NCBI GenBank assembly: GCA_963664405.1
Contig: OY761158.1
Location: 5,408,001 to 5,472,000, forward strand
DNA: 64,000 nt
Origin: Thermoanaerobaculia bacterium
GTDB taxonomy: Bacteria > Acidobacteriota > Thermoanaerobaculia > Multivoradales > Multivoraceae
Direction of reading: 5' to 3'
Made by a program: the position numbers and the translations under genes. The notes under the pieces were generated by a model. The model was not told the origin of the DNA and did no database searches. It saw only the letters and a list, made by a program, of their open reading frames with translations. Below, one piece after another: positions 31,763-64,000 of this stretch (its first letter is position 1; every line of letters starts with the position of its first letter).

Positions 31763-31819
31763 GGTAATGGCGAGGCTAGGATTCCCGGCGTCGTGGCGTC
31801 GCTTCTGAGCGTAATAGCC

Positions 31820-36080: not shown

Positions 36081-36552
36081 CCCGACCGCCCAGGGCACCC
36101 CACCTCACCGCGTGCTCGTCGCTCGGCTCCTCCGGCGTACAGGAGTACGCCTACGTCGCCTCGCTCCTGCGCTGCGGCGATCTGGGGCACCCTTGTTGAT
36201 GGCTGCGAGAAAGCGCATCCCGTTGGCTGCGAGCGCAGTTTCCGGGATGGAGTGAGCTGAGGGCTTCGCGACCGCGGGAAAGCTAGGCCTTCTTCAGGAA
36301 GGGCGGCATCATCCCGCCGGAACGGCGGTCCGGGTGCGTGGTCCCGGCGGCGTGTTTGCGGTCGGAAGAGATGCGTGAGTCGGTGTAGGGCTTTGCAGTG
36401 CGGGCTCTGCTCTGATAGAGCAGGCCGACCAGAGACGGCGAGAGCCCGGGAAAGCGAAGTAGAAAACGCCCCGGGCTCTGCCCCAAACCGCAGCATTAGC
36501 TGCGCTTGCAGTATGGCAGAGAGTCGGGGTCGTCGTCGAATGGGAGGCGACG

Positions 36553-36948
36553 ATGCGACCGGACTACCGACTCTTCGACTGTGCTCGATGCCGTCGGCGT
36601 ATCTCGCTGTGCTCGCACTGTGACCGTGGCCAGCGTTACTGCCGGGCTTGTGCTCTGGTGGCTCGTCGGGAATCGACTCGGGCGGCCGGCCATCGGTACC
36701 AGCGAAGCCTCCGAGGTCGGCATTGTCATGCCGCCCGTCAGGCCCGCTACCGTCGGCGCCAGCGCGAGCGGGCAGAGAAAGTGACGCATCAGGGTACCCC
36801 AGGCGGTACTTCGGGGAGGACACTGTGTCGGATCGAGACTCCGAGGCGCGAAGTGCGCTACGACCCGAGGAATCCGCGATGCATGCAGTGTGGAGAGGCC
36901 TGCCGAGAGTTTGTGCGAACGAGCTTTCGTCGTTGCCGACGGAGATAG
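36553..36948 (+). CDS. Cys/Arg-rich IS21 accessory protein (putative Zn-binding)
   Basis: CARC..CSHCDRGQRYC..C, HAARQARYR and terminal CxxC. SD GGAGG; ends 4 bp before istA. Confidence 0.65.
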   Translation: MRPDYRLFDCARCRRRISLCSHCDRGQRYCRACALVARRESTRAAGHRYQRSLRGRHCHAARQARYRRRQRERAEKVTHQGTPGGTSGRTLCRIETPRREVRYDPRNPRCMQCGEACREFVRTSFRRCRRR

Positions 36949-36952
36949 GGGC

Positions 36953-41379: not shown

Positions 41380-41488
41380 GGGCGAATATGGTGCCGGCAT
41401 ACGGCGGTGCGGAACCTAAGTTCGAACCGTCCGCATAGGGCCAAGAGTGGACGCGAGCGACTTGTCGGGAAGGTGAGAGAATCGCCGC

Positions 41489-43018: not shown

Positions 43019-43111
43019 TCGTACGAGCCAGGGCGCGGCAGAATCCCGACGTAGTGTGGCTCTGACCTTGACTACTCCCGGGCAATCTCGAATTGATAGG
43101 AGACTCCGACG

Positions 43112-43516
43112 ATGCCATCCAAACTTGATGAGTTTGCGAGTCACTACGCCCAGGCGTGGTGCAGTCAGAAGCCCGAAAGTGTTGCGGCGTTTTACGCCGA
43201 GGGCGCCTCGCTTCGCGTCAACGATGACGCCCCAGCTGTGGGCAGAGCCGCTATCACAGAGGTGGCCAGGGGGTTCATGACGGCCTTTCCGGATATGGTT
43301 GTGGCTCTGGACGAACTCCTCTCCAAACCAGATGGTGCCGAGTTTCACTGGACCTTGACGGGTACAAACTCCGGGCCCGAGGGCACCGGGAAACGGGTCC
43401 GGATCAGTGGCTACGAAGAGTGGCAGATCGACGCGAACGGCCTCATCGCCGAGTCCATGGGTCATTTTGACTCCGCCGAATATGAGCGCCAGCTCGAGCA
43501 CGGCGTGGACGGCTAG
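43112..43516 (+). CDS. SnoaL/NTF2-like (ester cyclase) protein
   Basis: FM.AFPD, WTLTGTNSGP.GTG..VRISG.EEW motifs. Confidence 0.85.
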   Translation: MPSKLDEFASHYAQAWCSQKPESVAAFYAEGASLRVNDDAPAVGRAAITEVARGFMTAFPDMVVALDELLSKPDGAEFHWTLTGTNSGPEGTGKRVRISGYEEWQIDANGLIAESMGHFDSAEYERQLEHGVDG

Positions 43517-43610
43517 TATGGTTGAGATTCACAACAGATGAGGAGGAGAGTCATGCCGAAGGTCGTATTCACACAGGCTGTAAGCGATCCCGCGGGCGAT
43601 TGACGGGAAG

Positions 43611-43994
43611 ATGGTTACACACACCGGGGGGTGTCACTGCGGACGAGTTCGCTTCGAGGTGGACGCTCCCGCAGAGATCGATGTCGACGAGTGCAACTGT
43701 TCGATCTGCTCCCGTGTCTCATACCTCCATCTCATCGTTCCGAAGTCTCGATTTCGCCTGCTCCGCGGCGAAGAATCGCTGACTTCTTATCGCTTCAACA
43801 CCGGGGTGGCTCAGCACCTCTTCTGTTCCACCTGCGGCGTCAAGTCGTTCTACGTGCCCAGATCTCATCCGGACGGCTACAGTGTCAATGCGCGATGCCT
43901 CGATCAAAGTAGCATTCAGCGATGCACGGTGCGGCAGTTTGATGGAGTGAATTGGGAGCAGCATGTTGTCGAGCTCGGCCAGCTCCAAGAGTAG
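43611..43994 (+). CDS. GFA family protein
   Basis: GGCHCG.VRFE, CNCSIC and H.FC..CG motifs. Confidence 0.9.
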   Translation: MVTHTGGCHCGRVRFEVDAPAEIDVDECNCSICSRVSYLHLIVPKSRFRLLRGEESLTSYRFNTGVAQHLFCSTCGVKSFYVPRSHPDGYSVNARCLDQSSIQRCTVRQFDGVNWEQHVVELGQLQE

Positions 43995-47906: not shown

Positions 47907-48030
47907 TGGCACCTTCCGCTAGAAAGTGCGCCAACCCTCGACTCCTTGTTGAGACGAAACCGCGCAACCACCGAAAGTTGTCCGCGGAAGGAAGGTACCA
48001 GATTGTCACCTTCCACCGAATTTCGCGACA
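47907..48030. repeat. 27-bp sites downstream of the recombinase (48004-48030; degenerate 47907-47933)
   Basis: TGTCACCTTCCACCGAATTTCGCGACA and TGGCACCTTCCGCTAGAAAGTGCGCCA. Confidence 0.65.
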
Positions 48031-48061
48031 TCACTACATTCGGAGGCGTCGCTCTTCGTGC

Positions 48062-48589
48062 CTACCATTTGGTCCGGAACTCCTGCAGCACGAACTCGGG
48101 GCTCATGTTCAGGTAGATCTCGGTCGTCGACAGGTGATCGTGGCCGAGCATCATCTGCAAGGCGCGTGTCGAGCCACCCTTGTGAATCCACAGAATCGCA
48201 AAAGTGTGACGCAACACGTGGGGACTGACGGGACGGGAGATCGTCGCCGCGTTGGCGACGCGTCGCACGGTGCGCTGAGTGGTCCGCGCCGAGAAGTCGA
48301 TTGTCTCGTGGAGGATGAAATAGTGCTCGAAAAGAGCCCGCACACGGTCCGAGAGAGGTACAACTCGGAGCTTGGTGCGCTTTCCATAGGGGCCACCCTT
48401 TCCGTACAGCCGGATGCAGCGCTGCTGCCACTGGATCTGGTTCCTGGTCAAGTTGGCCAGCTCGGAGACGCGCATACCCGTCTCGAGAAGAGCCCAGATA
48501 CAGATCTTCTCCTCCATTGTCTCGCAGGCGTTGATGATTCGATCGGCTTCCTCAATCGACAGTGGCTCACGTTTGTGTTGGTATCTCAT
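48062..48589 (-). CDS. Minimal tyrosine recombinase (catalytic domain only, 175 aa)
   Basis: Complete R-K-H-R-H-Y set: ETGMRVSE, YGKGG, HVLRH, LGH and TEIY. No N-terminal core-binding domain. Confidence 0.92.
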   Translation of the reverse strand: MRYQHKREPLSIEEADRIINACETMEEKICIWALLETGMRVSELANLTRNQIQWQQRCIRLYGKGGPYGKRTKLRVVPLSDRVRALFEHYFILHETIDFSARTTQRTVRRVANAATISRPVSPHVLRHTFAILWIHKGGSTRALQMMLGHDHLSTTEIYLNMSPEFVLQEFRTKW

Positions 48590-48666
48590 GGCACAGTCCA
48601 TCAGAGACTGCGCGGGAGGAAATCGCAGCTCCTCCCTGAGAGCCGGCTCTAGAGAGCTTTCTGGGT

Positions 48667-48716
48667 ACTCATTCGGATCGAGCTATGCGTGTCGTAGTGC
48701 GCCACATAAAGCGACA
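48667..48716. repeat. Linker motif plus 27-bp site (48690-48716)
   Basis: ACTCAT-N9-GCTAT-N3-TGTCGTAGTGCGCCACATAAAGCGACA, 7 bp from the kinase stop codon. Confidence 0.85.
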
Positions 48717-48723
48717 TCCTCTC

Positions 48724-51403
48724 TCAGTCGGCGGGAACGAGATGCTTCAGCTCCTCGGCCCAGTTCAAGACGACCTGGATGTGGGCTGGCGCGCCCTCGA
48801 GAGCCTTGATGAAGACGAAATCTCCGTTGGGTAGGACGTCGTACTGGGGGAAGGGGGACGGGTGTGAGTAGTAGCGCGCCTCGAAGAGGAGCTTCGGCCG
48901 CGAGTAGGTGAAGCTCTGGCCACCTGCCGACTCAGCCACGTCGACCTTCATCAACAGGTCACCGTTACGGTAAAAGAGCTCGCGCCCTTGCGTGCTCCAG
49001 ACGGGGTTTCGACCACCCCCGGTCGAGATTCGATACTTCGCCTCCGAGGTTCCGGCCAGCGGTCGCACGTAGACATTCAGCTGACCGTCTTCGTCGCTGA
49101 CGTACGCCACCCACCGCCCGTCGGGGGAGGATCTAGAGCTGGTCTCGTAGACCGGCGTCGCAAGAAAAGGTCGCGGCTCTGTTTCACCGGCAGGCAGCAT
49201 CATGATGTCGTGGAGGTTTACCGGATCCACCAGCTGGTAGAGAAGATCTCCGTTCGGCGTGAAGGAATGCGCCACCTGCACCGGCCCGGGTGCAGTAACG
49301 GCAATTTCGTCGGCGCTGCCATCGGCCAGCTTCGAGAAGAGGCCGATCCCTCCAGGTCGAGTCGACTGGAAGACCAGGCGATCACCTTCGGCGCTCCACA
49401 CCGCGAAGCCCGATCCCTTGAAGGTCAGCTGCCGCCGACTCTCCTGGGCTAGATCGTAGATCCAGACTTCGCGCCGCCGCAGGTCGGTGGCGTTGTTGCC
49501 GCTGAGGACCGTTACCGATACCTGATCTCCTGCTGGTGAGACGCGAGGCGCCAGATAGCTGTCGGGTGGGATCTCGAGCGGCGTCTCTTTGCCACGGCGA
49601 TCCACTCGTACCAGGGTCGACAGCCGTTGAGCGCTGATCGGCGTGGTTGCAAGGAGGTTTCTCGCGACCGCGTATTGCGACACTCCCCGCGCCACCGGTA
49701 CCGGCGTGCCGGTGACGCTCCCGGCTTCGACATCGAAGGGCACGGCCATCAAGTCGTTGTCGCGGCGAAACAGAAGATGTCCGGTCGATACGACCTGGGG
49801 GTCACGGGCGTCATCGAGCAATGTGAGTCTTCTGCCCGAGGCAACGTCGATGGCGATCAGGCTCGGGAGGCGCGAGGCGGCCACCACCTCCGCGAGGACG
49901 GTCTTTCCGCCGGGGAGTAGCTCGGGTGAGCTCGGTTTCCCTCGCCGCCCTGTTTCGCCGCCAGAGTCTGGAGCGTCCGCGTCGTCCGCGGGGACGGGAG
50001 GATGATAGAGCTCCGCAGTGCCGCCGACGGCCGGTACCACCAGCAACTCGTCCGAATCGAGGGTGGCGAAGACGATGCGATCGTCGTCACCCCAGGCACC
50101 GCCTCGGGGGATTGGGACATCGCAGATCGCTACCGGGGCTCCCCCCCCCCTGGGTCGGCAACCTCTTGAGCTCCGTGCCCTGAAAGAAGGCGATCCACTC
50201 GCCGTCCGGTGAGAACAGCGGAAACTGCGCCCCCCGGGTTCCCGCTAGCGGCTGGCTCGAGGGATCCGCGATTCTGCGGAGATGGAGCTGGTCTTGAGCT
50301 ACGAAGACGAGCTGGAGTCCGTCGGGCGATAGTGCGAGCTCGCGAAGCCCTTCAAGCCCTCTACCGTTGGCGCCGGTGATACTCAGCCGGGCCGGTCGTA
50401 GCGTCACGGGCTTTTCGTTTCGCGGCGCGATCAGGGTCGTCAGCAGCATGCCGGCTGCCAGTCCAACAGCAAGCGCGAGGGCAACACGTCCCCGGACCTT
50501 CGTGGGGGTGACCGCAAACTCGGAACCTGCGTTCGGGTCGGTAGCTGCGTCCCTCGCCTCCTCGATCTCGAAGCGAGCGTCACCGATGTCGCGCAATCTC
50601 TCGCTGGGCTCTCTCTTTAGGCAACGACGGAGCAGACGCTGGATCGCTCTCGGCGTCGGCGCAAGCCTTCCCCAGTCCAACTCTGCCCGAAGAACCGCTG
50701 CCAGTGTGTCGGCCGCATCGTCGCCCTCGAAGGCGCGGCGGCCTGCAAGCGCCTCGTAGAGGCACGCGCCGAAGGCCCATACGTCGGCCCGCTTGTCGAC
50801 CTCCCTGCCCTTCGCCTGTTCGGGCGACATGTACGCCGCGGTGCCAAGGATCTGGCCCTGGCGCGTTGCCGCGTAGGTGAGCGTGGGCGACTCCGAGGAG
50901 TCGCTCTCCGGGCCTGTCGCCGGAGCCATTGCCTTGGCCAGACCGAAGTCAAGAATCTTGACGTTCCCGTCGTCGGTGACCTTGATGTTCGCGGGTTTGA
51001 GATCCCGGTGGATCACGCCCTTTTCGTGGGCTGCCTCTAGACCTTCCGCGATCTGCAAGAAAACGGGCAAGGCTTCATCGACGGGGACAGCACCTCTCTT
51101 GATGCGCTCGGCGAGTGTCTCGCCTTCGACCAGTTCCATGACCAGGAAGTTAGTGTCCCCTTCCTTCTCGAAGCCGTAGAGCGTGGCGATGTTGTTGTGA
51201 TTCAGTGAGGCGAGGACGCGAGCCTCGCGCTCGAAGCGCGCCAGCCGCTCAGGATCTGTGGAAACCTCATCGAGAAGGAGCTTGATCGCTACCTCGCGCC
51301 CGAGCTTGGTGTCCTTGGCGCGATAGACCTCTCCCATTCCTCCCACTCCGAGGCTTGAGACCACTTCATAGTGGCCAAGGCGAGTGCCAGCTTCGAGCGC
51401 CAT
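48724..51403 (-). pseudogene. Ser/Thr kinase-TM-TolB/PD40 propeller K1, frameshifted at a G10 tract (50141-50150)
   Basis: Hanks motifs (Gx[24 protein letters not shown]); ORFs 50087-51403 and 48724-50046 join if the tract is G9 or G6. Confidence 0.85.
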
Positions 51404-51463
51404 GACTTGGCGACATCTTACCCGTCGCCCGTGGGATCAGCGGCTCAGAGAGCTGATTCCCGC

Positions 51464-51540
51464 TGTCGCGATGCACCCGGAACTGCGACAGCAGGAGCCT
51501 ATTCAGATCGAGCTATGGCTGTCGCAGTCCGCCACCAAAG
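51464..51540. repeat. 27-bp site (51464-51490), 29-bp linker and left part of an IS-interrupted site (51520-51540)
   Basis: TGTCGCGATGCACCCGGAACTGCGACA..GCCTAT-N9-GCTAT-N3-TGTCGCAGTCCGCCACCAAAG. Confidence 0.85.
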
Positions 51541-51671
51541 TCATCATAGAAATGCGCTCGGGTGCGCCCGAGGTCAAGAAGTAGGGAGTTGTGAAGAACG
51601 GTCCTCCGTCGAAAGGGTCAAACTCGAGATGAGTAATTACCCTGGGCTTAGCCCCAAGAAGGAGGACCGAA

Positions 51672-52710
51672 ATGGAACGATATCTCGGACTCGACATGCA
51701 TCGGGACAGCTGCACGGCCGTCGTGCTGAGTGCCGGTGGGAAGAAGACCGGCGAGCAGGTGATGGCGACCGAAACCGCCGCGTTGGTGCAGTACATAAAG
51801 AGTCTCTCGGGAGAGCTTCACGTCTGTGTGGAGGAGGGCGAGTGGAGCGAGTGGGTAGTGGAGATCCTCAATCCATGGGTCTCGCGGGTGGTTTCGGCGT
51901 CGGCTCCGGGTCGCAAGGGTCCTCGCAGCGATGCGATGGACGCTCGCGAGCTCGCCGAGCGTCTGAGGACTCGCCAGACGGGTCCACCGGTCTACAAGGC
52001 GTCTCGGGAATGGGCGCGGCTGCGCGAGGCAGTGCCGCCTGGAGGGCAAGCTGCTCCAGGACGCGGTACGAGCCAAGCAGCGGCTCAAGAGTCTGTATCG
52101 ACGTCGTGGTGTGGCGTGCTTGGGCGAGGAGGTCTACTCCCCGCAGCTGCGCGAGCAGTGGCACGCGAAGCTGCCCGCAAGCGTGCGGCCATCCGCCGAG
52201 CTCCTGGGTCAGGAGCTCGATCACCTCACAGAGCTGCACCAGACCGCCGAGCGGCAGATGTGTGCAGCCGCTGGCAAGTTTCCGATGTGGCGCAAGCTCC
52301 AGACGGCTCCGGGGATCGGCCGCAAACGATCGGCACAACTGCTAGCGATCGTGGTGACCCCTCATCGCTTCCGCACCAAACGACTCTTCTGGTCCTACTG
52401 CGGACTCGGTGTGGTCACGCGCTCGACCTCGGACTGGGTCCGCCAGCCGAACGGTCAGATGGTGCGGGCTCCAGTGATCCAGGCCCGGGGGCTGAACAAA
52501 GCCTGCAACCGTCAGCTCAAGGGGCTCTTTGTGGGCGCCGCGAAGACGGCTCTCCGCTGCCGGCGACCCAATCCCCTGCGCGACGCCCACGAACGGATGG
52601 TCGAGGCCGGGACCAAACCGAATCTGGCCCAGCTCACCATCGCGCGAAAGATCGCTGCAGTGGTGCTGGCCATGTGGAAGAGCGAAAGCGAGTATCGGAT
52701 CATGAGCTGA
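51672..52710 (+). pseudogene. IS110 transposase, +1 frameshift near 52035
   Basis: YLGLDMH, VEEG, SDAMDA; second frame has PGIG, F.TKR.FWSYCGLG..TRST and IARKIAA..LAMWK. Confidence 0.85.
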
Positions 52711-53090
52711 GTCTCACCTTCGACCGCTTCCCTGCCGGGCTCTGGCGCCGAGCGCCGGACCGAGACGGGGATCGGTGCCGGGTCGGACTCAGAGATCCAA
52801 AGGTCGAGGGAGAGTCTCCACTGTCGTCTTGTGCCCCATCATCGATGGGAGTAACTGACATAAGTCTAGGCCCCCTCCCAGGACCAAAAGAAGAGATGGC
52901 CCACGAGGCCCTGATGGAAGGCTGGTCCCAGCATACGAGGACCCACACACTCACTTCTCATCTCACGAGCTCACCCGCAACAGGAACCGATCCCCGAACC
53001 GGAAGACGCCTCGCGGATCCACTCGGTAGAGGAATAGCCCGCGCTCGATCCCAAGACCTCGAGCGCTCAGGGAAACTCCGTCTTGACATC
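52711..53090 (+). ncRNA. Predicted bridge/seek RNA of the IS1111-type element (bounds approximate)
   Basis: CCAAAG (52797-802) matches left target plus core; CTGTCGTCTT (52821-30) is the reverse complement of core plus right target AAGACGACAG; ATGGAAG (52914-20) matches the donor right end. Confidence 0.7.
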
Positions 53091-53104
53091 GATTTCTATG
53101 GAAG

Positions 53105-53176
53105 ACGACAGCTCGCCGATTTCGGGGCCTATCGCCTTTCAGCTATTCGTGTCGTGGTCCGCCAGATTCTGCGACA
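53105..53176. repeat. Right part of the interrupted site, 39-bp linker and 27-bp site (53150-53176)
   Basis: ACGACA..GCCTAT-N9-GCTAT-N3-TGTCGTGGTCCGCCAGATTCTGCGACA, 6 bp from the K2 stop codon. Confidence 0.85.
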
Positions 53177-53182
53177 CGGTGA

Positions 53183-55888
53183 TCAGTCGGTCGAGGTGAG
53201 TCGTTTCAACTCGTCGAACCAATCGAGAACGACGTTGATGTAAGAAGGCGTCGCTTCCGGAGGCTGGAGCATCAGGAAACGATTGCCGTCGGACGTGACA
53301 TCGTAGTGGGAGACCCCCTTGCCGAGCCGAGGGGCCGGCCATCCGCTGAGGAGAACCTGCGCTGGCTCGAACGTGAAGACAGAGCCGTTGGTCTCGACAG
53401 GAATAACCATGAGGAACTCGCCCTGGCGAAAGAACAGTTCCCGTCCGTCGCGGGACCACACCGGGTCCCGGCCGCCGTTTGCGGAGACCGGAGTGGAACC
53501 TACAGGCTCAGGATACGACGTGACGTGGACCTCCTTTTCGCCCGTCACCTCCGACACGTATGCGATCCATCGCCCGTTCGGCGAGAAGGTCGGCGAGTCC
53601 TCGTTGTGCGGACGCGAGAGAAAATCGCTCGGCCCCCCCTCTTCGAGGATGCCAATGTCCGATCCGGCCGGCGTGGTCTCGAAAAAGGCGAGGGCGTTGC
53701 CATCTAGGCCCCAAGAGGTCGGAAACTGACGGCCTGCCCGCGCCAACAACTGCTCCGGCTCCCTCCCCCCATCGGCCGGCACGAAGTGCAGGTCAAAGTG
53801 CGCGGCTCCCCTGACTGCGGAGAATGTGAGTCCGTTACGCTGCTGGTCCCAGACGGGCGTGAGATTGTATCCGTCGGTGGTCAACAACGTCCGGGTGCCA
53901 CTTTCGACATCGATGACCCAGATGTCGGGCGTAATCGTTACGGCGATCTGATTGCCATCCGCCGATAGACGAGGGGTCTTGTAAGGGGCAAGGCCGTCGA
54001 CAACCGGCGTCACCTGCTGGTTCTGTCGATCGACCCAGACGAGCGTCGTGTCCGTCGCGCCGGAATCTTCCGGCGGGTAGGCGAGCGTTCCGGTGTCGGA
54101 CACCGCGAAATGCGCGCCACCCAGCCCGGCGAGATACGGAACCCTCTCGGTGGTGGGAATGGGAGAGCCACTGGCACTCAGCCGGTCGAGATCAAACGCA
54201 ACCACCATCAAGGCCCCATCCTGGGCATATACAAGATGTCCTGTTTGGACGTAGCGGGCACCGTGGGCATTGGGGAGCACCCAGTCCCATTCATTTGACG
54301 CAAGGGACAAGATCGCGGCTCGCGGCCCGTCGTTGTAGTTGATGGTAAACAGGACGTGCTGACCGCCGGGGAGAATCTGGGGATCGAAGTGCCGAAATTC
54401 CCCCACCGCGGCGTCTGGAAGCGTCAGTCGTTCCGGTACTCCGGCACCTGCTGACACTTTGTAGAGGCCAAACGTGAAATGCGAAAAGATGATGGTGTCA
54501 TCACGCCCCCAGCTCGCGCTCGGGAAGAGCCCGATCGTGTCGCAAATCTTCACGGGGGACCCACCCAAAACCGATACTTTCTGCAGCGTCCTGTTGGCAA
54601 AGAAACCGATCCATTCGCCGTTCGGTGAAAAGAATGGAGCTTGCGCGCCTTCGGTACCCGCGATCGGCTGAGCTTCGAACTCGTCGATCGGGCGGAGAAA
54701 CAGCTGCGTCGATCCACCCCCAGGCTGCGCTGCCGTGTAGACCAGGAGTTGACCATTGGGCGAGATTGCGATGGCACTAACGGCGGCCTCCTCGCCCAAC
54801 GACAGCTCCTGGTCGGGCGGAAGCGCGACAACGAGTCGAGCCGGAGACCGCACCTCGGCCTGCCGCAGGGCCCACCAGGCGCCGGCTCCCGCTCCCACTG
54901 CGAACAGCGCGGTCAGCGCCCATGGGACCAGTCGCTGCCAACGGTGAGCCTGAAGCGGCCGTTCGGCCTGGCGTGCATCAACGGCCGGAGCCGCGAAGGC
55001 ATCACCGATCTCGATCCGCGCGTCGGCCTGAAGCTCATCGCCGACCGCCTGAAGCTCGATCCCGACATCCAGGGCCGACTGCCAGCGTCGCTCGGGGTCT
55101 TTGGCCAGGCAGCGGCTCACAACCCAGTCGAGGCGAGGTGGAGCGATCTCTTGGACCGCCCTCAGCGGTCGAGGCTCCGAGGCCATGATGGCGGTGGTCA
55201 GGGAAGCTTGGTTGTCGCCCTGGAAAGGGCGCTCGCCGGTGACCATCTCGTAGAGCACGCAGCCCAGTGCCCAGATGTCGGTGCGGGCGTCGGTGTCCTT
55301 GCTCTCCAACTGCTCCGGTGCCATGTAGAGCTGCGTACCGAGGATCGAGTCCTGACCGGTGATCGGCTGCATCCTCGTCGGTGACTCTGTGTTGGCCGCC
55401 AATGGCTCCGGCTCGATGCTCTTCGCCAGTCCGAAGTCCAGCACCTTGACGCCGGTCTTCGTCAGCATCACGTTGCCGGGCTTCAGATCCCGATGCACCA
55501 CTCCGGCCTTGTGGGCGGCATCGATCGCTGCACCGATCTGGCTCCCGATCTCTAGCGCCTGAGCGATGGGAAGAGCCCCCTTCTTCAACCCCTTCTCAAG
55601 CGTCTCGCCTTCCACCACCTCCATGACCAGGAAGCGAGTGCTGCCGTCTGTGTCGAAGCTGTAAAGCGTGGCGATGTTCGGGTGATTGAGGCCGGCCAGG
55701 ACCTTGGCCTCGCGCTCGAACCGCGCCATCCTCTCAGGATCCCCGGATACCTCCTCCAATAGCAGCTTGACCGCCACCTCACGACCGAGCTTCGTGTCTT
55801 TCGCTCGGTACACCTCTCCCATGCCTCCCGCACCGAGGGAGGAGACGATCTCGTAGTGGCCCAGGATTGTGCCTGGTTTTAGCTGCAT
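53183..55888 (-). CDS. Ser/Thr kinase-TM-TolB/PD40 propeller K2 (intact, 901 aa)
   Basis: Hanks motifs, TM helix, repeated FSPNG.WI blades and C-terminal YDV..DG.RFLM..VVLDWFDELKRL. Confidence 0.92.
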   Translation of the reverse strand: MQLKPGTILGHYEIVSSLGAGGMGEVYRAKDTKLGREVAVKLLLEEVSGDPERMARFEREAKVLAGLNHPNIATLYSFDTDGSTRFLVMEVVEGETLEKGLKKGALPIAQALEIGSQIGAAIDAAHKAGVVHRDLKPGNVMLTKTGVKVLDFGLAKSIEPEPLAANTESPTRMQPITGQDSILGTQLYMAPEQLESKDTDARTDIWALGCVLYEMVTGERPFQGDNQASLTTAIMASEPRPLRAVQEIAPPRLDWVVSRCLAKDPERRWQSALDVGIELQAVGDELQADARIEIGDAFAAPAVDARQAERPLQAHRWQRLVPWALTALFAVGAGAGAWWALRQAEVRSPARLVVALPPDQELSLGEEAAVSAIAISPNGQLLVYTAAQPGGGSTQLFLRPIDEFEAQPIAGTEGAQAPFFSPNGEWIGFFANRTLQKVSVLGGSPVKICDTIGLFPSASWGRDDTIIFSHFTFGLYKVSAGAGVPERLTLPDAAVGEFRHFDPQILPGGQHVLFTINYNDGPRAAILSLASNEWDWVLPNAHGARYVQTGHLVYAQDGALMVVAFDLDRLSASGSPIPTTERVPYLAGLGGAHFAVSDTGTLAYPPEDSGATDTTLVWVDRQNQQVTPVVDGLAPYKTPRLSADGNQIAVTITPDIWVIDVESGTRTLLTTDGYNLTPVWDQQRNGLTFSAVRGAAHFDLHFVPADGGREPEQLLARAGRQFPTSWGLDGNALAFFETTPAGSDIGILEEGGPSDFLSRPHNEDSPTFSPNGRWIAYVSEVTGEKEVHVTSYPEPVGSTPVSANGGRDPVWSRDGRELFFRQGEFLMVIPVETNGSVFTFEPAQVLLSGWPAPRLGKGVSHYDVTSDGNRFLMLQPPEATPSYINVVLDWFDELKRLTSTD

Positions 55889-55949
55889 GAATTGAGCAGC
55901 ATCTTACTCGCCGCCTCTGGGATCTACCGCTCAGAGGCTGAATCTGGCG

Positions 55950-56042
55950 TGGCGTCTTCCACCATGAAAGACGACAGCCCCTCTGCTCAGAGGCTCATCT
56001 GCTTTCAGCTATACGTGTCGTCCTTCGCCACATTTCACGACA
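55950..56042. repeat. Paired 27-bp sites (55950-55976, 56016-56042) with 39-bp linker
   Basis: TGGCGTCTTCCACCATGAAAGACGACA / TGTCGTCCTTCGCCACATTTCACGACA. Confidence 0.88.
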
Positions 56043-56050
56043 TGCTTCGC

Positions 56051-58728
56051 TCAGTCGGTGGGAACCAGACGCTGCAGCTCCTCGAACCAGTTCTGGACCA
56101 GGACGACGTGACTGCTCGAGCCCCCCTCGGTCGTCTCCGCCGGTTTGACCATCAGGAACCTCTGACCGTCAGGGTGGATGTCGTACATGCGGCCGATTCT
56201 GACGGCATAGCTCCCCGTGAAGAGCTCCTGTGGGCTCCCAGCCTCGAACGCGGGCTCGGTTGTGACCGGCACTGCCATCAGCCGATCGCCGGCACGATAG
56301 AAGATCTCGCTCCCGTCGGGCGACCATAGCGGTTCGCTGCCACCGCCCGCTGAGATCGGGAAGCGACCGCCGTCGACCTCAGGGAATGGCCTCACATAGA
56401 TCTCGTCCTCGCCTGATTCGTCCGACTGGTAGGCCAGGAAACGACCGTCGGGTGAGATCTCTCCACTCCGCTCATTGATATCCGTGGCGAGAAGCAGCTG
56501 TGGCGCTCCCTCGCCTTCCAGCGACAGCACCCCCAGATCGAATCCCCCCCCTGCGCCGACGCGGTAGACGAGAAGCTTGCCATCGGGAGAGATCGACGAG
56601 GGAAATAGACTGTCTGGGCTGTCGGTGAGAGGCCTTACAGCGCCCGTACCGTCAGCCGCCCTCTGGTAGACGTCGAAGGTCCCGCCACGAACCGAGCTGT
56701 ACACCACTTCGCGGCTGTCAGGAGTCCAGATCGAATACATGTCTGGTCCCGGATCGCGGGTCAACCGGTCCAGGGTCTCCCGACCGAGATCCCAGATCCA
56801 CACATCCTGTTCTTCATCCTGGGAAGAGACCGCTACCCGCTGTCCATCCGGAGAGATGCGGGGAAGCAGGTAGGGCCGAATCGGGGCCAAGAGGGCCTCC
56901 TCCCTCCCGTCCCGTCCCACCCAGACCAGGGCCGTCTGCACCCCTCCCCCTGCGCCACCCGTGACGTACACCAAGGATCCGTCCTGCGAGAAGTCGAAGT
57001 TCACAGCACCTGTGGGCTTCGTGCCGACGCCTTCCAAGACGGGCACCGGATTTCCCCGGACCTCAAGACTTCCTGCATCGAAGGCCACCGCACGTAACGT
57101 ACCGCTCACTCCATAGACCAGGTGCCCAGTGGGCACGTACCGGGCGCCGGCCCCTCCAGAGACCAGGACCTTCCGCTCCCCGGTGGCGAGAGATAGGGCC
57201 ACGATCTGCGTCTGCTCGACGTTCGCGCTCGTAAATACCGTGAAAAGGACGGCCTCGCCGCCGGGTAGTACATCGGGGAAGCGATAGCTACTCTCTCCTC
57301 TCTCGGGATCTGGCGCTACCAGCAGCTCCGGCTCGCCGCCTCCCCCCGACATCCGATAGAGGCCCTCGGAGATGGAGCTGAAGATGATGGTGTCGTCCGC
57401 GCCCCAGCTCACACCGGGGAGAATGCCGCCGGGTATGTCGGCCAAGGTCACGATTGGTCCCCCGAGAATGGAGACCTTCTTGAGAGTTCCGCCGGATGCG
57501 AAGCCGACCCAGGCCCCGTCAGGTGAGAGGAAAGGAGTCCTCGCGCCCTCCGTGCCTTCCAGGTGGGACCCGACGAGGCTGCCCACGTGGCGAACATAGA
57601 GAGAGCCTCCGCTCTGGTAGACCACCGCACGACCGTCGGTTGTCACCGCCAGATCGCGCCCGTTTGGGAGAACGCTCACCGGCGCGCTGGGAGCGGCGCT
57701 CAGCACCGAGCGAACCACGGGGCGCTCGGTCGGCAGTGGAGCAGGCTTCAGCATCCAGACTGCGCTGGCGATCACTGCGACGGCAGCGAGGGCGGCGAGA
57801 ATGAGGGGGACGGGACTGCGCTTCTCCGCCATAACCGCCCCGGGGGTCTCCTCGTCCTCCGGAGCCGCCATGACTTCTTCGATCTCGATGCGGGCATCAC
57901 CGATATCGTGCAGCCTCTGCCTTGGGTCCTTGCTGAGACACCGCCGCAACAGTTCTCTGAGCTTTCTGGGCGTGTCGCCAGGGAGCCCTTCCCAGCCCGG
58001 GTCAGACTTGAGCACCGACGCCAAGGTGGTGGAAGCGTCCTCGCCCTCGAAGACTCGCTTGCCGCTCAGCGCCTCGAACAGACAGACCCCGAAGGCCCAC
58101 ACATCGGCGCGCTTATCGACGGTCTTTCCTCGCGCCTGCTCGGGAGCCATGTAGGCGGCTGTGCCGAGAATCTGACCCCGTTGAGTTGCTGCAAGAGTGA
58201 GGGTCGGAGATTCGGACAAGCGCCCTCTCCGGTGGCACTAGCTTCCACAGCCATCGCCTTGGCCAACCCGAAATCGAGGAGCTTCACGGCACCCTCGTCC
58301 GACACTTTGATGTTCGCGGGCTTCAGATCGCGATGGATGACGCCCTTCTCGTGGGCTGCCTCCAGCCCCTCAGCGATCTGCAAGAAGACGGGCAATGCTT
58401 CGTCGACTGGCATGGCTCCTCTCTTGATGCGATCCGCTAGAGTCTCGCCCTCCACCAGTTCCATGACCAGGAAGCTGGTGTCGCCTTCCCGCTCGAAGGC
58501 GTGAAGGCTGGCGATGTTCTTGTGGTTGAGCGAGGCCAGAACCCGCGCCTCCCGCTCGAGGCGAGCTAGGCGCTCCGGGTCAGAGGAGACCTCGTCAAGC
58601 AGGAGTTTGACCGCCACCTCGCGCCCGAGCTTCGTGTCGCGAGCTCGGTAGACCTCTCCCATGCCCCCGGCACCGAGGGAGGAGACCACTTCGTAGTGGC
58701 CGAGGCGAGTGCCAGCTTCTAGCGCCAT
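56051..58728 (-). pseudogene. Ser/Thr kinase-TM-TolB/PD40 propeller K3, single frameshift near 58221
   Basis: ORFs 58066-58728 and 56051-58219 join at ..ATGEG-LSESPTLT with one added base. Confidence 0.85.
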
Positions 58729-58787
58729 GACTTGGTGACATCTTACCCGTCGCCCGGGGGATCAGCGGCTCAGAGCTCGATCTGTGC

Positions 58788-58880
58788 TGTCGCACCTCAC
58801 CGAATTTCACGACAGCCCCTTCTCTCAGAGGGTTATCTGCTTTCGGCTATACCTGTCGCAGAGCGCCAGGGATTGCGACA
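58788..58880. repeat. Paired 27-bp sites (58788-58814, 58854-58880) with 39-bp linker
   Basis: TGTCGCACCTCACCGAATTTCACGACA / TGTCGCAGAGCGCCAGGGATTGCGACA. Confidence 0.9.
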
Positions 58881-58923
58881 GACAGTGGCAGCTCTGTCGG
58901 CCCCTACTCTGGAGGGAGAGATC

Positions 58924-59385
58924 CTATTTGCGCTCATGAACAAGATCGATTTGGAACTCGCGGCGAATCTCTGCGAGCGGCCGGCTCAAGAAGGTGTCGA
59001 AGTTGGACCAAGGCCACTTGGCCGGCATGCGATGACCTCGCCACGCAGCCTTGACGAGGATCGGTACTGACCTGGCGAAGGTGACCAAAGCTGTCCGCCA
59101 GCCAACCTTTGCCATGATGTCTTTGTGCTCCTCGACCCTGAAGAAGCCAAGAAACTGACGGATGCTCACAGAGGTACCGAAGAGCGTCCATGTGTCCGTC
59201 AAGGCCTCGCCAGCCAGGCTAGTGCTACAGCCGAACAAGACATGGGCCGTGTCGTGGCACCGAAAGAACTCAGCGCCGAGTCCTCCGGGATCTCGGGCTG
59301 AGGCGAGCCCTGGGTTTGCAGCCCAATACTCCATCAGCCCCTCGGCCAGAGTCTGCCGTGATTCCTGCTCCTGATACCTTGGCAA
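58924..59385 (-). CDS. Coq4-like hypothetical protein
   Basis: HDxxH(x)11E motif (HDTAHVLFGCSTSLAGE) and PL.EIR.EF.I; SD AGGAG before the TTG start. Confidence 0.6.
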   Translation of the reverse strand: MPRYQEQESRQTLAEGLMEYWAANPGLASARDPGGLGAEFFRCHDTAHVLFGCSTSLAGEALTDTWTLFGTSVSIRQFLGFFRVEEHKDIMAKVGWRTALVTFARSVPILVKAAWRGHRMPAKWPWSNFDTFLSRPLAEIRREFQIDLVHERK

Positions 59386-59481
59386 GGCCGAACTCTCCTT
59401 CGCGGAGCTCTCACGCCATCAACCAGCGCGTAGTCTAGCGTCCGACCACAGCAATAGGACGCTCTTTCGGCACGCCCTCAC

Positions 59482-59508
59482 TGTCGTAGTGCGCCACATT
59501 TCGCGACA
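59482..59508. repeat. 27-bp site
   Basis: TGTCGTAGTGCGCCACATTTCGCGACA, 4 bp from a kinase C-terminal stub. Confidence 0.85.
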
Positions 59509-59512
59509 CCAT

Positions 59513-59570
59513 TCAGTCGGTGGGCCGCGTGGCGTTTCAACTCGTCGAAGCAGTTGAGGACGACATAGCT
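59513..59570 (-). pseudogene. C-terminal stub of a fifth kinase-propeller gene
   Basis: YVVLNCFDELKR...PTD* matches the tails of K1-K3. Confidence 0.7.
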
Positions 59571-59586
59571 GCAATGCTTAAGCCGC

Positions 59587-60054
59587 TTAGAGATCCAGCA
59601 ATGGTCCTACGATCTCCATGTTGTACTTCTCGGCCAATTCTTCGGCTTTGGCAACGTAAGCTTCTGTGTCCGTGACATCCAGATCAACCGCCTCGTCAAA
59701 GAACTGCTCGAATCCTGGTGGAGAAATGATGGCGAGTAATTTGGCAGGTTCCTGCCCGGCGCGACACCAGGCGTGAACCGTTCCCCTGGGGATGAGGACG
59801 AAAGAACCAGCTTTCGCTATAGAAGTGGTTTCTCCCAACAGTACTTTGACCTCTCCCTCCAAGACGTAGAAGGCTTCCTCCTCGGTTTTGTGTATATGCT
59901 GTGGCGGTCCGTCGCCGGTTAGCTCGATCTCCAAAAGTGAGTACGCACCACCGGTGTCTGCACCAACCACCTTAAGCGTTATCTCGTGGCCTGGCACTGG
60001 AACTGTCTTGCCCTCTCCTGGGCCGAGTACAACATTCCCATCGTCAATAGACAT
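59587..60054 (-). CDS. Cupin-domain protein
   Basis: PPQHIH..EEEAFYVLEG, IPRGTVH and PPGFEQFF motifs. Confidence 0.88.
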   Translation of the reverse strand: MSIDDGNVVLGPGEGKTVPVPGHEITLKVVGADTGGAYSLLEIELTGDGPPQHIHKTEEEAFYVLEGEVKVLLGETTSIAKAGSFVLIPRGTVHAWCRAGQEPAKLLAIISPPGFEQFFDEAVDLDVTDTEAYVAKAEELAEKYNMEIVGPLLDL

Positions 60055-60224
60055 ACATTGTTCTCCTTAGTTCTCCCATGGAACACAAAAGATTGGGACT
60101 GACGGCTTTGGTGAATCAGGCCTGGGCGACCATCGCAACCATCCACTTTAGATGAGTGAACAGGAGTATACGTCTGCGCCGGGTCTGGTCCCGCTACCCT
60201 TCTGGTGGGGGACCCGATTCGCGC

Positions 60225-60316
60225 CGTCGTAATGCGCCGAATTTCACGACACACCTCTGCTCGAAGGCTTATCTGCTTCCGGCTATGCGTGTCGCGGTCC
60301 GCCACATTTCACGACA
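60225..60316. repeat. Paired 27-bp sites (60225-60251, 60290-60316) with 38-bp linker
   Basis: CGTCGTAATGCGCCGAATTTCACGACA / TGTCGCGGTCCGCCACATTTCACGACA. Confidence 0.9.
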
Positions 60317-60326
60317 CGCCTTCGCC

Positions 60327-63000
60327 TCACGAGCCCCCCTCGGAGAACATCTCGAGCACCTTGGCCCGCCAGTTCTGGACGAAGACTAGACGCTCCTCCT
60401 CGGCCTCTGCCGCCTGGATCATGAGGAAGCGACCGTCGGGGTGGATGGCGTAGTTCTGGAAGCTCAAGGGTGTGCGCAGGTAATCATCCACGAAGAGTGG
60501 CTCGGGACGCCGGGGGGACGAAGCGCTCGCCGGAGATCTCGACCGGGAGCGTCATCATGTGGGTCGGGCTGCGGTAGAGGATCTCGCTGCCTTCGGGGGA
60601 GAAATCGGGCTCCCCGCCGCCGTCGAAGGTGAGCTGGCGCGGCTCGCCGGGACCGGGGAAGGGCCGGATCCAGACGTTCTCCTGTCCCTGAATCACCACC
60701 GAGTAGGCGATCCAACGTCCGGCGGGGTGGAAGCGGGCGGCGGGGACCACGTTCCCCTCGAGGAGGGTCTCGGACTCTCCGCTCTCCCGGTCGAAGATCC
60801 AGAGTCCGGAGACATCGATGTTCGTGTAGAGCATGTAGCGCCCGTCCGGGGAGAAATCCAGCGGTACCTGCGGGTGCTCCGACGGTACGAGCCGCTCCGC
60901 CGGGGCACTGCGATCGGCAGGCTGGATGTAGAGCTGAAAGCGTCCCTCGAGGCGATCCGACATGAAGACGATCTCCTGGCCGTCGGGGGGCACCCACATC
61001 AAGCCAGCGTTGCGATTCCCCTCCTGGGTCGGGCGGGTCCAGGAGCCGGTCCCGAGGTTGAGCATCCACTGCTCTAAGTCCCCCCTGGCGTTGCGGGCGC
61101 CCACCGAGATCCGGCGCCAGTCCTGGGAGTGTCGCGGCGACGCGAAAGGCTTGCGCTCCGGCGCCACCTCCTCGATGTCCCGGCCGTCCCGACTCACCCA
61201 AACCAGCCGGGACACGCTCCGACTCCCGAGAACGTAGAGCAGGTCGCCCGAGTCGGCGAGCGCGAAGCGGCCCCTATCGACGCCAACGCCGAGGAGCGGC
61301 GCCACCCCGTTCTCGACCTGACGCGCCGGGCCGAGGAGGGCGGCGGTCTCGGGATCGATCGGCGCCGCCCACAGTCCGCCCTCGCGATAGAAAACCAAAA
61401 CCCCCGGATCGAGATAGAACGGCTGCGCCCCAGGGAGGAGAACCCGTTCCTTGCCAGTCTCGAGGTCCACCGCCTGAACATCGCTCCAGAAGCCCTCCTG
61501 ACGCTCGGATCTCAAGTGGGCCAGGACGACCCTCTCACCAGGCAGAAGCGCGGTGCCGATGCCATGCCCCACCTGCTCGGAAACACCCCCGTCCGCCGGA
61601 ATCCGCCATAGCTCGCGAGACGTGGGGCTTCCTATCTCAGGAGTGTAGTAGAGGAAGCCATCGCGCCCCCAGACACCGGTCCTGCGGATCCCTTCCACCA
61701 GAGCGCTGGCGCCTCCACCCCCCACGGGAAGCGTCTTCAGACTGCCCCCGGCCACGAAAGCAAGCTGCTGGCCGTCGGGCGAGAAGATCGGGCGGAGGGC
61801 ACCGTCGCTGCCGGAGATGCGATCGGCAACCAGGGAGTCGAGAGAGCGCCGGTAGAGGCTGGTCTCGGCTCCCTCGCGACGGCCGAAGACCACCATCCGA
61901 CCGTCCGGGGAGAGCACGAAGGGCTGATCCGGAGTTGCCTCGAGGTCGAGAGCCGTGACCGTCCAGGTGTCGGCCGAAGTGGCGTCGCTGGCCACGTTCT
62001 CCTCCCCACCACGGTCCAGGACGTAGCCGAGGGCGAGACCGACCACCAGGGCGAGGAGGGCGAGTGCTCCGGCGAGGACCGCCGACACCGGTCGCCTGGT
62101 AGGCGCCGCCTCGCCACCGGCTGGCGCGTCGATGTCCGGCTGCTCGAGCACTCCTCGGATCTCGATCCGGACGTCGGCGATGTCGTGAAGGCGCTCCCGC
62201 GGGTCCCTCGTCAGACACCGTCGGAGCAGTGTCCTGATCGGCCTCGGCGTCGCCGGGGGGAGCTTGCCCCAGTCGATCTCCGCTCTGAGCACCGCTGCCA
62301 GCGTGTCGGCGGCATCGTCGCCGCGGAACGCCCTCGATCCCGTCAGCGTCTCGTAGAGACACACGCCGAAGGCCCAGACGTCGGCCCTTCTATCGACCTC
62401 TTTCCCCTTGGCTTGCTCAGGCGACATGTAGGCCGCCGTGCCGAGGATCTGGCCTCGGAGCGTGGCCGCCTGGGTCAGCGTGGGCGATTCCGAAGGGTCG
62501 CTCTCCGGCCCCGTCGCCGGAGCCATTGCCTTGGCCAGACCGAAGTCAAGAATCTTGACGTTGCCGTCGTCGGTGACCTTGATGTTCGCGGGTTTGAGAT
62601 CCCGGTGGATCACTCCCTTCTCATGGGCTGCCTCGAGGCCCTCGGCGATTTGGAGAAACAGAGGGATCGCCTCATCGACGGGAATCGGGCCGTGAGCGAT
62701 CCGATCGGCCAGAGTCTCACCCTCCACCAGTTCCATGACCAGGAAGCCCGTGTCACCTTCCCGCTCGAAGGCGTGGAGGCTGGCGATGTTCTTGTGGTTG
62801 AGCGAGGCGAGAACTCGCGCCTCCCGCTCGAAGCGAGCTAGACGCTCCGGGTCAGAGGAGACCTCGTCGAGCAGGAGTTTGACCGCTACCTCGCGACCGA
62901 GCTTCGTATCCTTCGCTCGATACACTTCTCCCATGCCTCCTGCACCGAGGGAGGAGAGCACTTCGTAGTGGCCGAGGCGAGTGCCAGCTTCTAGAGCCAT
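60327..63000 (-). pseudogene. Ser/Thr kinase-TM-TolB/PD40 propeller K4, frameshift near the 3' end in a 6-nt homopolymer (60512-60517)
   Basis: 838-aa ORF. Removing one base gives the family tail RPEPLF...NYAIHPDGRFLMI...FVQNW ending at 60327. Confidence 0.82.
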
Positions 63001-63060
63001 TGACTTGGCGACATCATACCCGTCGCCCGGGGGATCAGCGGCTCAGAGCTCGATCTGTGC

Positions 63061-63144
63061 TGTCGCACCTCACCCAAAAGTGCGACAGCGGGAGGCTTAT
63101 TCGCTTCGAGCTATTCTTGTCGTAGTCCCAAGGGGTCCCTGTGG
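63061..63144. repeat. 27-bp site (63061-63087), 30-bp linker and half-degenerate site (63118-63144)
   Basis: TGTCGCACCTCACCCAAAAGTGCGACA..GCTTAT-N9-GCTAT-N3-TGTCGTAGTCC. Confidence 0.82.
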
Positions 63145-63214: not shown

Positions 63215-64000
63215 TCACTCGAATACTTCGAGCTCCCTTCCGCCGGAGCGCAGCACGACGTCGACGTACTTGGTGTCCGCTGTCGTACCGCCGAAAACAC
63301 CCACCGAGATGAACCACACACCAACGACGCGCTCTGGTGGATCGCCGCCTACCGCCATTTCATAGTCGTCGAGGATCTTGCGGGTGTGGCTCTGCCACAC
63401 GCCGACGTCCTCACGGCCGCTCTGGAGCACGATGTGGGTCTCGCGCCTGTCCCACCAAGGCAGCGGGCAGCGGAAGCTCGTCACGGCCTCGAGGTAGGGG
63501 CTTCGCATCCACGTGATGTCCTGCCCGTTGTCGAACTCGAGGGCGATGCTCGAATAGTCGTGGTGGCTGGCCTCTGTCTCCGGGCCCAGGGAGTGCAGGT
63601 CGTCGTAGCGCCAGGCGAAGCTGATCTCGCTCGATCGATCGAGCGGCAGATCCACCGCCTTCTTGATGATCCCGCCCGACGAGGCGGCGTTGCCCCAGAC
63701 ACCGTGCCGCTCGCCGTCGTCCCAGGCCTCGAAGACATCGGCTGTGCGGAGTAGGTAACACACGGAACGGAAACCCGCAGGAAGCTCGCGAGCGGCGTCG
63801 AGGTCGGCCTTGGCGCGTGCCAGGACTTCGTGTGCGACGAGGCCTCCTAGGGCGTCGCCGGGCGCCGATCTCCACGCCACAGTCAGCAGGTCGTGACCGG
63901 GCGCTTGGCGCGGAGCCGCGCTGAGCGAGGCCGGCGGCGTGCCGTCACAGTGCTCCCAGCGTACGTCCCTGGGCAGTGAGATCACTTCGATTTCACCCGT
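63215..64000 (-). CDS. DUF3047-like protein (5'-partial)
   Basis: Frame open to the window end; W.YDDL.S...E...HHDY.SIA.EFDNGQD.TW..S, W....R.I..DY..A.GG.PP motifs. Confidence 0.65.
   Translation of the reverse strand, partial: TGEIEVISLPRDVRWEHCDGTPPASLSAAPRQAPGHDLLTVAWRSAPGDALGGLVAHEVLARAKADLDAARELPAGFRSVCYLLRTADVFEAWDDGERHGVWGNAASSGGIIKKAVDLPLDRSSEISFAWRYDDLHSLGPETEASHHDYSSIALEFDNGQDITWMRSPYLEAVTSFRCPLPWWDRRETHIVLQSGREDVGVWQSHTRKILDDYEMAVGGDPPERVVGVWFISVGVFGGTTADTKYVDVVLRSGGRELEVFE

Follow-up and report, generated by a model that had tools for sequence, protein, structure and literature searches.

The stretch of DNA analysed here (the window) spans 64,000 nucleotides, genome positions 5408001–5472000 of a Thermoanaerobaculia bacterium whose sequence is a single 6.78-Mb contig with a G+C content of 62.6%. 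It contains an array of genes bounded by directly repeated 27-bp elements of the form TGTCG-N17-CGACA, together with a gene for a small tyrosine recombinase. The DNA between two directly repeated elements behaves as a cassette, and copies of a cassette in different arrays of the genome are joined to their surroundings inside the element. Judging from these sequences, the 27-bp elements are probably the recombination sites of an integron-like cassette platform served by the recombinase of about 175 amino acids (aa). Such a platform had been proposed in an earlier note on the window, and the proposal is supported by chimeric sites as well as by sites that adjoin the recombinase gene in distant lineages.

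Recombination footprints at the 27-bp sites

Self-comparison of the arrays revealed cassettes that are common to different arrays at 97.8–99.7% identity, with the identity ending inside the sites. One cassette of 3,827 bp, present in arrays A1 and A3 (28158–31984 vs. 759586–755760), is 99.7% identical in the two places. At one of its boundaries, TGTCGTCCTT|CGCCACCAAATGCGACA is matched by TGTCGCAGTG|CGCCACCAAATGCGACA, i.e., the left arms differ, and the core, the right arm and the cassette are the same. At the other boundary, the left arm and core TGTCGCAGTGCGCCAC are common to both copies and are followed by |CAAAGG... in one and |ATTTCA... in the other. The same boundary behaviour was observed for the pairs 599488–600069/4990909–4991490 and 767719–768586/4990666–4989794, with identities of 99.5% and 97.8%, respectively. 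Cassette copies that are 99.5–99.7% identical in different arrays point to recent events.

For a broader view of the junctions, 65 site pairs were collected, each with one 60-bp flank of 90% identity or more and a second flank of 50% or less, and a change-point was fitted over a 140-position scan with invariant site positions skipped. The junction falls inside site positions 6–20 in 51 of the 65 pairs, with modes at 12–15 (22 pairs), 7|8 (11 pairs) and 10–12 (6 pairs). Each arm follows the flank on its own side, and the base at position 12 (A or G) stays with the left arm. Since only 4–6 bp are shared at the junctions, ordinary homologous recombination is excluded. The pattern reads as the footprint of site-specific recombination, such as would be left by a tyrosine recombinase exchanging strands centrally, and not as that of operators or repetitive extragenic palindromic (REP) elements. 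The reassortment of arms is extensive: 104 distinct sites are made up of 44 left arms and 72 right arms, 21 of the left arms pair with at least two right arms, and 16 of the right arms with at least two left arms.

In the window, TGTCG-N17-CGACA occurs exactly nine times, always on the + strand (48690–63087), where 0.07 occurrences are expected; nine was reached in none of 100 shuffles. With one mismatch allowed, sites at 48004 (TGTCA), 55950 (TGGCG) and 60225 (CGTCG) are added, and these twelve are all of the well-conserved sites that the earlier note had listed. The site matrix derives from 88 oriented genomic sites and has invariant ends, Y–R at positions 6–7 and 21–22, and C[A/G]CC at positions 11–14, in agreement with the CRCC motif previously read from the window. 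The previously described division into two classes at gene boundaries holds as well, and extends to all of the arrays: sites with a CGCC core are located a few bp past stop codons, and those with a CACC core precede kinase starts by about 60 bp. Hybrids between the two classes are found at 60225 in the window and at 41243 in A1. Paired sites are spaced 65–66 bp start to start, or 56–57 bp where a linker variant of 29–30 bp is present, and small non-kinase cassettes are set apart by single sites. The 39-bp linker is conserved between arrays, has a short hairpin inside, and moves together with the CACC right arm.

The array in the window, A8, is one of nine. Across the genome, the exact pattern occurs 118 times; the matrix yields 71 + 52 hits at a score of at least 14 and 65 + 42 at a score of at least 20, compared with 4 and 0, respectively, in the reversed sequence. 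At the higher score, which was used for the cluster counts, nine clusters, together covering 2.6% of the genome, account for 98 of the 107 sites. Within a cluster the sites point the same way; this applies to 97 of the 98, and the one that deviates is a special end site in A7. The earlier note had placed the sites of A8 correctly but not its end: instead of stopping at 63144, the array extends about 3.3 kb past the end of the window, reaching genome position 5475273, with an end structure in addition. Such promoter-proximal end structures consist of the last CACC site, 66 bp, a half-site (...GGCGACA), 3 bp and a special 27-mer, e.g., TGTCGCGATATGTGCGTGGGTGCGACA. They are present at eight of the nine clusters, and the version of A8 is degenerate.

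About 90 cassette genes are carried by the nine arrays, many of them coding for sensor kinases, and about 27 of the 57 kinase-domain loci of the genome are found within arrays. Ser/Thr kinases whose sensor domains vary predominate in the cargo. They include kinase–PD40 and kinase–TPR proteins and a 1230-aa kinase–AAA16–TPR protein. Other cassettes, mostly co-oriented with their neighbours, code for an adenylate cyclase–TPR protein, two RpoD-like sigma factors, a methyltransferase, a cupin, a PLD-like protein, an amidohydrolase, a Na/H exchanger–TrkA protein, DUF3047 and transposases. The RpoD-like sigma-70 cassettes encode proteins of 564 aa with regions 1.1 to 4 and are located in A3 and A7 (771143–772837 and 5002495–5004189; L006 6143–7837); the gene in A7 is oriented opposite to the neighbouring genes. 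In PADLOC, the kinases matched the PD-T4-6, mad6, MkoA and PglW models via the generic kinase domain only, and a defence role was not accepted on the basis of such matches. The small cassette proteins gave no match in PADLOC.

The small recombinase and its relatives

The recombinase gene (48062–48601, minus strand) is the sole intact copy in the genome. Its product has 179 aa; the alignment of the family suggests a start at Met5, which would give 175 aa. The protein matches PF00589 (Phage_integrase) with an E-value of 3.4 × 10−29 (102 bits vs. a cut-off of 27). The intact R-K-H-R-H-Y set reported in the earlier note corresponds to R44, K68, H128, R131, H154 and Y163, which are invariant in an alignment of 28 sequences (73% mean column identity). 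The recombinase profile aligns only to residues 104–271 and 139–308 of archaeal XerA structures. The XerA structures 4a8e and 5hxy are the best structural matches, and the AlphaFold model (predicted local distance difference test, pLDDT, 83) best matches the XerA structure 5hxy in PDB, with template modelling (TM) scores of 0.76 for the query and 0.50 for the target. The enzyme is thus a XerA-like tyrosine recombinase that has the catalytic domain only and lacks a core-binding domain. Its scores against the NCBIfam Xer models are below the cut-offs (bits/cut-off: XerA, 117/220; XerC, 94/335; XerD, 93/330; XerS, 52/267), as are those against the integron integrase models (TIGR02249, 68.3 bits vs. 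265; NF011946, 47 vs. 435), which match the C-terminal 60 residues only. A search for homologs of near length returned 2691 proteins at E ≤ 0.001, and most of the 120 listed among them measure 174–176 aa. Among proteins of at least 315 aa, no close homolog was detected; there was one match, at 37% identity, which by the search tool's own note is weak evidence.

At 43–59% identity, members of the family are found in metagenome-assembled genomes (MAGs) labelled Poribacteria, Aerophobetes, Clostridia, Acidobacteriota, Elusimicrobiota and Planctomycetes, in MAGs labelled Methanosarcinales, Woesearchaeota and Nanoarchaeota, and in many metagenome contigs. The homologs that carry sites (from Poribacteria, Acidobacteriota, Aerophobetes, Clostridia, Planctomycetes, Elusimicrobiota and metagenomes) are 45–65% identical. 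A family site matrix was applied to 88 homolog loci with at least 250 bp of upstream sequence; 65 of these have one or more upstream sites, and 38 have a pair 93–97 bp apart. The density of hits is 110 in 191 kb upstream vs. 4 in 335 kb downstream, a contrast that is partly circular because the family matrix was trained on upstream hits. A generic detector of palindromic arm pairs, tried upstream of the homologs, was too noisy (18 of 88 loci vs. 6 of 88 in the control), and the family matrix was used instead. The common upstream layout is site 1 (e.g., TGTCGCCTTCCACTAAGAAAGACGACA), a half-site, 3 bp and site 2, which starts 93–97 bp after site 1. The arms vary by lineage, for example TTGCG/CGCAA (L033), GTTCG/CGAAC (L031) and TGGCG/CGCCA (L138), and this matches what a cognate protein–site pair predicts. 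In this genome, the recombinase is a cassette at the distal end of an array; in the other lineages, it is located beside the end structure.

When six metagenome loci were compared, the site 1–site 2 module was found to be 82–94% identical and the recombinase DNA 78–86% identical, with unrelated DNA between them. This slot between site 2 and the recombinase (L118, L121, L125, L128, L136 and L146) harbors genes for HicA/HicB, ParE, SNase, Schlafen/AlbA_2, a trypsin-like peptidase and a Hjc-like nuclease. No site was seen at the recombinase-proximal end of the slot cargo in the six loci. In the metagenome loci, site 2 is positioned between a TTGCGT hexamer and a TGnTATAAT element. Based on this position between promoter-like −35 and −10 hexamers, site 2 is read as an operator of the cargo–recombinase operon and probably serves in autoregulation. 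When the surroundings (±10 kb) of 14 genome homologs were searched de novo, no arrays were detected. In a close metagenomic relative (L107/L108), whose recombinase is 92% identical, a site, the recombinase gene, a half-site with a 66-bp linker, a CACC site and a kinase gene follow one another, and upstream of the recombinase there is a cassette other than that present in this genome.

The phylum comparison covered 40 relatives and 400 further genomes (440 in all). Among the 40 relatives, a homolog was detected in one genome only (G008, same family), where it is a frameshifted pseudogene, split over three reading frames. Convincing sites among these relatives were likewise confined to G008: there are three, two of which are empty end structures without cassettes. 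The G008 loci are L020 1501–1640, L026 1501–1620 and L016 1501–1960, and the end structures consist of a site, 66 bp, CGACA, 3 bp and a second site. The strict pattern occurs at most three times per genome in the 400 further genomes, and likewise across all 440, vs. 86 times here; one true 66-bp pair is present among the 400, in G201. The large expansion therefore belongs to this lineage in particular. Array building is documented only here and in the close metagenomic relative (L107/L108). The earlier note had named sites scattered genome-wide with no link to the recombinase as one of the findings that would speak against a platform; instead, the sites of this genome are clustered, and among the relatives sites and recombinase occur together.

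Proposed mechanism, rival explanations and known systems

In the mechanism that is proposed, the 27-mers would be simple duplex sites, with 7-bp inverted arms (TGTCGYR...YRCGACA) around the asymmetric centre C[A/G]CC at positions 11–14. The recombinase would bind the arms and exchange strands in the central region, and the junction hot spots at 7|8 and 12–15 would fit a 7-bp overlap at positions 8–14. Excision would yield a circle with one hybrid site, which could re-enter at any site of the nine arrays. A single recombinase gene, itself a cassette, would serve all nine arrays in trans.

Several observations weigh against this reading. There is one intact recombinase gene for nine arrays, and we know of no protein without a core-binding domain that binds and synapses DNA alone. 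Under the family matrix, 23 of the 88 homolog loci, including all of the archaeal ones, gave no site, and outside this lineage 0–1 cassettes per locus were seen; the circularity of the upstream/downstream contrast counts here as well. Fourteen of the 65 junctions fall outside positions 6–20, mostly at point differences in diverged kinase leaders. The hot spots at 7|8 and 12–15 are asymmetric about the site centre, and the 7|8 class could instead reflect a variable triplet in diverged kinase leaders. Many kinase cassettes are only 85–92% identical, so that the arrays must owe their make-up in part to tandem duplication and homologous exchange. From the short contigs of the four public sequencing runs that best cover this DNA, a direct sign of present-day activity was not obtained: contigs over the window are identical to it, and the joints, which lie in kinase paralog repeats with sides of 19–31 nt, are uninformative either way.

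One alternative accepts the sites as real but assigns them to another tyrosine recombinase, either a host enzyme of the XerC/D type or a 286-aa protein linked to an IS91-like element, with the 179-aa protein as a passenger or regulator. The IS91-like element (2.6 kb) codes for a Y2 transposase (408 aa) and for the 286-aa protein, a two-domain SAM-like/Phage_integrase recombinase. At least five full, near-identical copies are present (34789–37391, 41380–43976, 596846–599449, 615110–617712 and 887165–889767; loci L002, L003, L004 and L007), four of them in or at A1 and A2, in linkers or sites or adjoining the special end site. Further two-domain recombinase-like genes are found at 3566204, 5350571, 6274562 and 6759404, and the missing core-binding domain of the 179-aa protein also favours another enzyme. 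However, the ends of the IS91-like copies lie within linkers and sites and not at site cores, which gives the element the appearance of having invaded the arrays; the same is true of the insertion element of the window. Moreover, the same type of site, with lineage-specific arms, adjoins the 175-aa gene in distant lineages, and relatives without that gene are also without the sites. This alternative is considered unlikely. A similarly low probability is given to the arrays being fossils, built in the past, whose cassettes no longer move. The arms and core have been kept in about 100 sites, the recombinase frame is intact with all of the catalytic residues, and the 99.7% and 99.5% identical cassettes in different arrays speak for recent events. 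In favour of the fossil reading, eight of the nine arrays lack an intact recombinase gene, with a 35-aa fragment at the A3 end (783022) and a diverged C-terminal fragment beside the A4 end structure (874206), the window has two broken kinase genes out of four, insertion sequence (IS) elements sit in sites, and some sites are degenerate.

Less probable than either of these is that the 27-mers are operators or promoter- or terminator-like elements of kinase genes, spread by tandem duplication, with the mosaics produced by homologous recombination or gene conversion. The positions of the sites are indeed fixed relative to kinase start and stop codons, one linker hairpin scores as terminator-like, and in other lineages promoter-like hexamers coincide in part with the second site of the end structure. 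Yet the stretches shared at the junctions near the site centre are far too short for homologous recombination, the same sites bound unrelated genes, and in other phyla the sites go with the recombinase gene and not with kinases. Nor is there an excess of sigma-70-like promoters in the window array (1 vs. 1.5 expected), a scan that is uninformative for this organism.

Integrons, the textbook platform for stockpiling and reshuffling genes, require a specialised integrase and attC sites that fold as single strands; the latter are imperfect palindromes of about 57–141 bp with RYYYAAC...GTTRRRY ends. The arrays described here resemble them in several respects: mostly co-oriented, unrelated genes are each bounded by sites, in other lineages a tyrosine recombinase is linked to the special promoter-proximal site (here it lies at the distal end), and the family members include cargo of the toxin–antitoxin/nuclease type. 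Insertion elements also invade the sites, which we take to recall the IS1111-attC and ISCR elements of integrons. Unlike IntI, the present recombinase has neither the IntI-specific insertion nor a core-binding domain (68 bits vs. 265), and it is itself a cassette; the sites are simple, 27 bp long and with the crossover placed centrally, instead of folded hairpins of 57–141 bp, and each is half-owned by each of the neighbouring cassettes. As the earlier note had pointed out, their TGTCG/CGACA ends are not those of attC. The possibility that the 66-bp pairs fold like attC was rejected, the two sites of a pair being direct repeats with non-complementary centres.

With Xer/dif and the pdif modules of Acinetobacter, the system shares short duplex sites with inverted arms and a central region, bracketed genes and an Xer-related enzyme, but a single catalytic domain of about 175 aa that scores below every Xer cut-off appears to stand here in place of a XerC/XerD pair of 300 aa. 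To our knowledge, the 27-bp sequence is unrelated to dif. Neighbouring pdif sites alternate in orientation, whereas the sites described here are all direct within an array, as the earlier note had observed. XerS/difSL and XerH/difH are single-recombinase Xer systems with the site adjoining the gene, and a cognate-type site immediately upstream of the recombinase gene is likewise found at the 65 family loci mentioned above. In contrast to those systems, the distribution here is patchy (one weak match among the 40 relatives), two sites and a half-site are present, and variable cargo is placed between site and gene, which makes chromosome dimer resolution a poor fit. Shufflons and invertases (Rci, FimB/FimE) also combine small tyrosine recombinases with many short sites per locus, but they invert segments via inverted repeats, whereas direct repeats within arrays predict excision and integration. 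REP elements and bacterial interspersed mosaic elements (BIMEs) were rejected on account of the clustering of the sites in 2.6% of the genome, as opposed to genome-wide dispersal; a gene for a REP-associated tyrosine transposase (RAYT) was not searched for.

No description of the family, the site or the array was met in the literature searched, including the tyrosine recombinase survey PMC8138268, whose supplementary tables could list such recombinases. Apparently, the recombinase family and the array system are undescribed. A more general proposal, to which slightly less than an even chance is given, is that they represent an undescribed class of gene-capture platform that acts on duplex sites, with recombinases of about 175 aa widespread in uncultivated bacteria and archaea and a control region of two sites and a variable cargo slot, and that in this genome nine arrays with about 90 cassettes keep, copy and reshuffle about 27 sensor kinases. 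If this is true, cassette platforms evolved more than once, here in a mechanistically simpler version, built on a minimal recombinase that crosses over centrally in 27-bp duplex sites. The 175-aa recombinase with its two-site region would then mark mobile gene pools in uncultivated lineages, and a small enzyme with a short, defined site would be of interest as a genome-engineering tool. The system would also account for the large sensor-kinase family of this genome and would amount to recombination-driven diversification of signalling or defence receptors.

Organisation of the window array and side observations

All of the sites in the window are on the + strand, and all of the array genes are on the minus strand: a Phage_integrase protein, four kinase–PD40 genes (two of them broken), a cupin, a 153-aa protein and the start of a DUF3047 gene. 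The distal edge of the array is formed by a degenerate site at 47907–47933 (TGGCACCTTCCGCTAGAAAGTGCGCCA, with TGGCA...CGCCA arms), which is below the matrix threshold and has the next site 97 bp on. The recombinase cassette is bounded by that next site, with a CACC core and the one mismatched arm (48004–48030), and by a CGCC-core site at 48690–48716, 89 bp upstream of the recombinase start. The following kinase–PD40 gene (48724–51403) is broken into open reading frames (ORFs) of 438 aa (kinase) and 440 aa (PD40), and has a CACC-core site (51464–51490) about 60 bp upstream of the kinase start.

A further site was claimed in the earlier note to be reconstituted across an insertion, and this proved correct. 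The left 21 bp of a CGCC-core site, TGTCGCAGTCCGCCACCAAAG (51520–51540), run straight into an insertion of about 1.56 kb (51541–53104, + strand), and the rest, ACGACA, follows at 53105–53110; joined, the two pieces give the consensus 27-mer. The insertion element has a weak IS110-type N-terminal match, and its relatives at genome positions 4985443–4986894 and 779175–780610 are 68% identical. Elsewhere in the genome, a 3.39-kb stretch is present in two 100% identical copies, at 593337–596726 (inside A2) and 4414142–4417531; among its contents is a 523-aa ORF, which equals the ORF of the window insertion element in length.

The next CGCC-core site (53150–53176) is located 6 bp past the stop codon of a cassette gene for a 901-aa Ser/Thr kinase with a PD40 beta-propeller (53183–55888), which is followed by the CACC-core site with the TGGCG arm (55950–55976), a 39-bp linker module that leads from this site to the next (55977–56015, + strand), and a CGCC-core site (56016–56042). 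The kinase–PD40 gene at 56051–58728 is frameshifted, with overlapping ORFs at 56051–58219 (722 aa) and 58066–58728 (220 aa), and is followed by a CACC-core site (58788–58814) and a CGCC-core site (58854–58880). Two small cassettes come next, the first coding for the 153-aa protein (58924–59385), which has no Pfam, NCBIfam or PADLOC match, and the second for the cupin of 155 aa (59587–60054); a single CGCC-core site (59482–59508) lies between them. The site at 60225–60251 is a hybrid with a CGCC core and a CGCC-class left arm joined to a CACC-type right arm and linker. Beyond a CGCC-core site at 60290–60316, the last kinase–PD40 gene (60484–63000; 838 aa from the first start of the ORF) is followed by a CACC-core site (63061–63087) and, after a 30-bp linker variant, by a half-site at 63118–63127. 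The earlier note had listed the latter as degenerate, like the site at 47907; of it, only the left arm TGTCGTAGTC survives. The next cassette, coding for a 408-aa DUF3047 protein, starts within the window (63215–64000), and the array runs on beyond.

At the array ends, no tRNA genes were detected by ARAGORN (nine loci) or at Rfam gathering thresholds (eight loci), and only tRNA fragments were found there, by BLAST. A 49-bp stretch at 3944488–3944536, about 300 bp past the A5 end structure, reproduces the 3' end of tRNA-Ala(ggc) without a mismatch, and the intact tRNA-Ala(ggc) gene (3990927–3991002) lies 46 kb off, on the other side of A5; flanking A5 in this way, the two look like the ends of a tRNA-integrated island that holds the array. 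Past the A8 end structure, 32 bp (L013 5436–5467; genome about 5475436–5475467) are 97% identical to the 3' end of tRNA-SeC, the gene for which is found at 3996757, 1.5 Mb from the fragment. A group II intron (RF02003, RF00029) is present at L007 16854–18808, about 11 kb beyond the small array A4.

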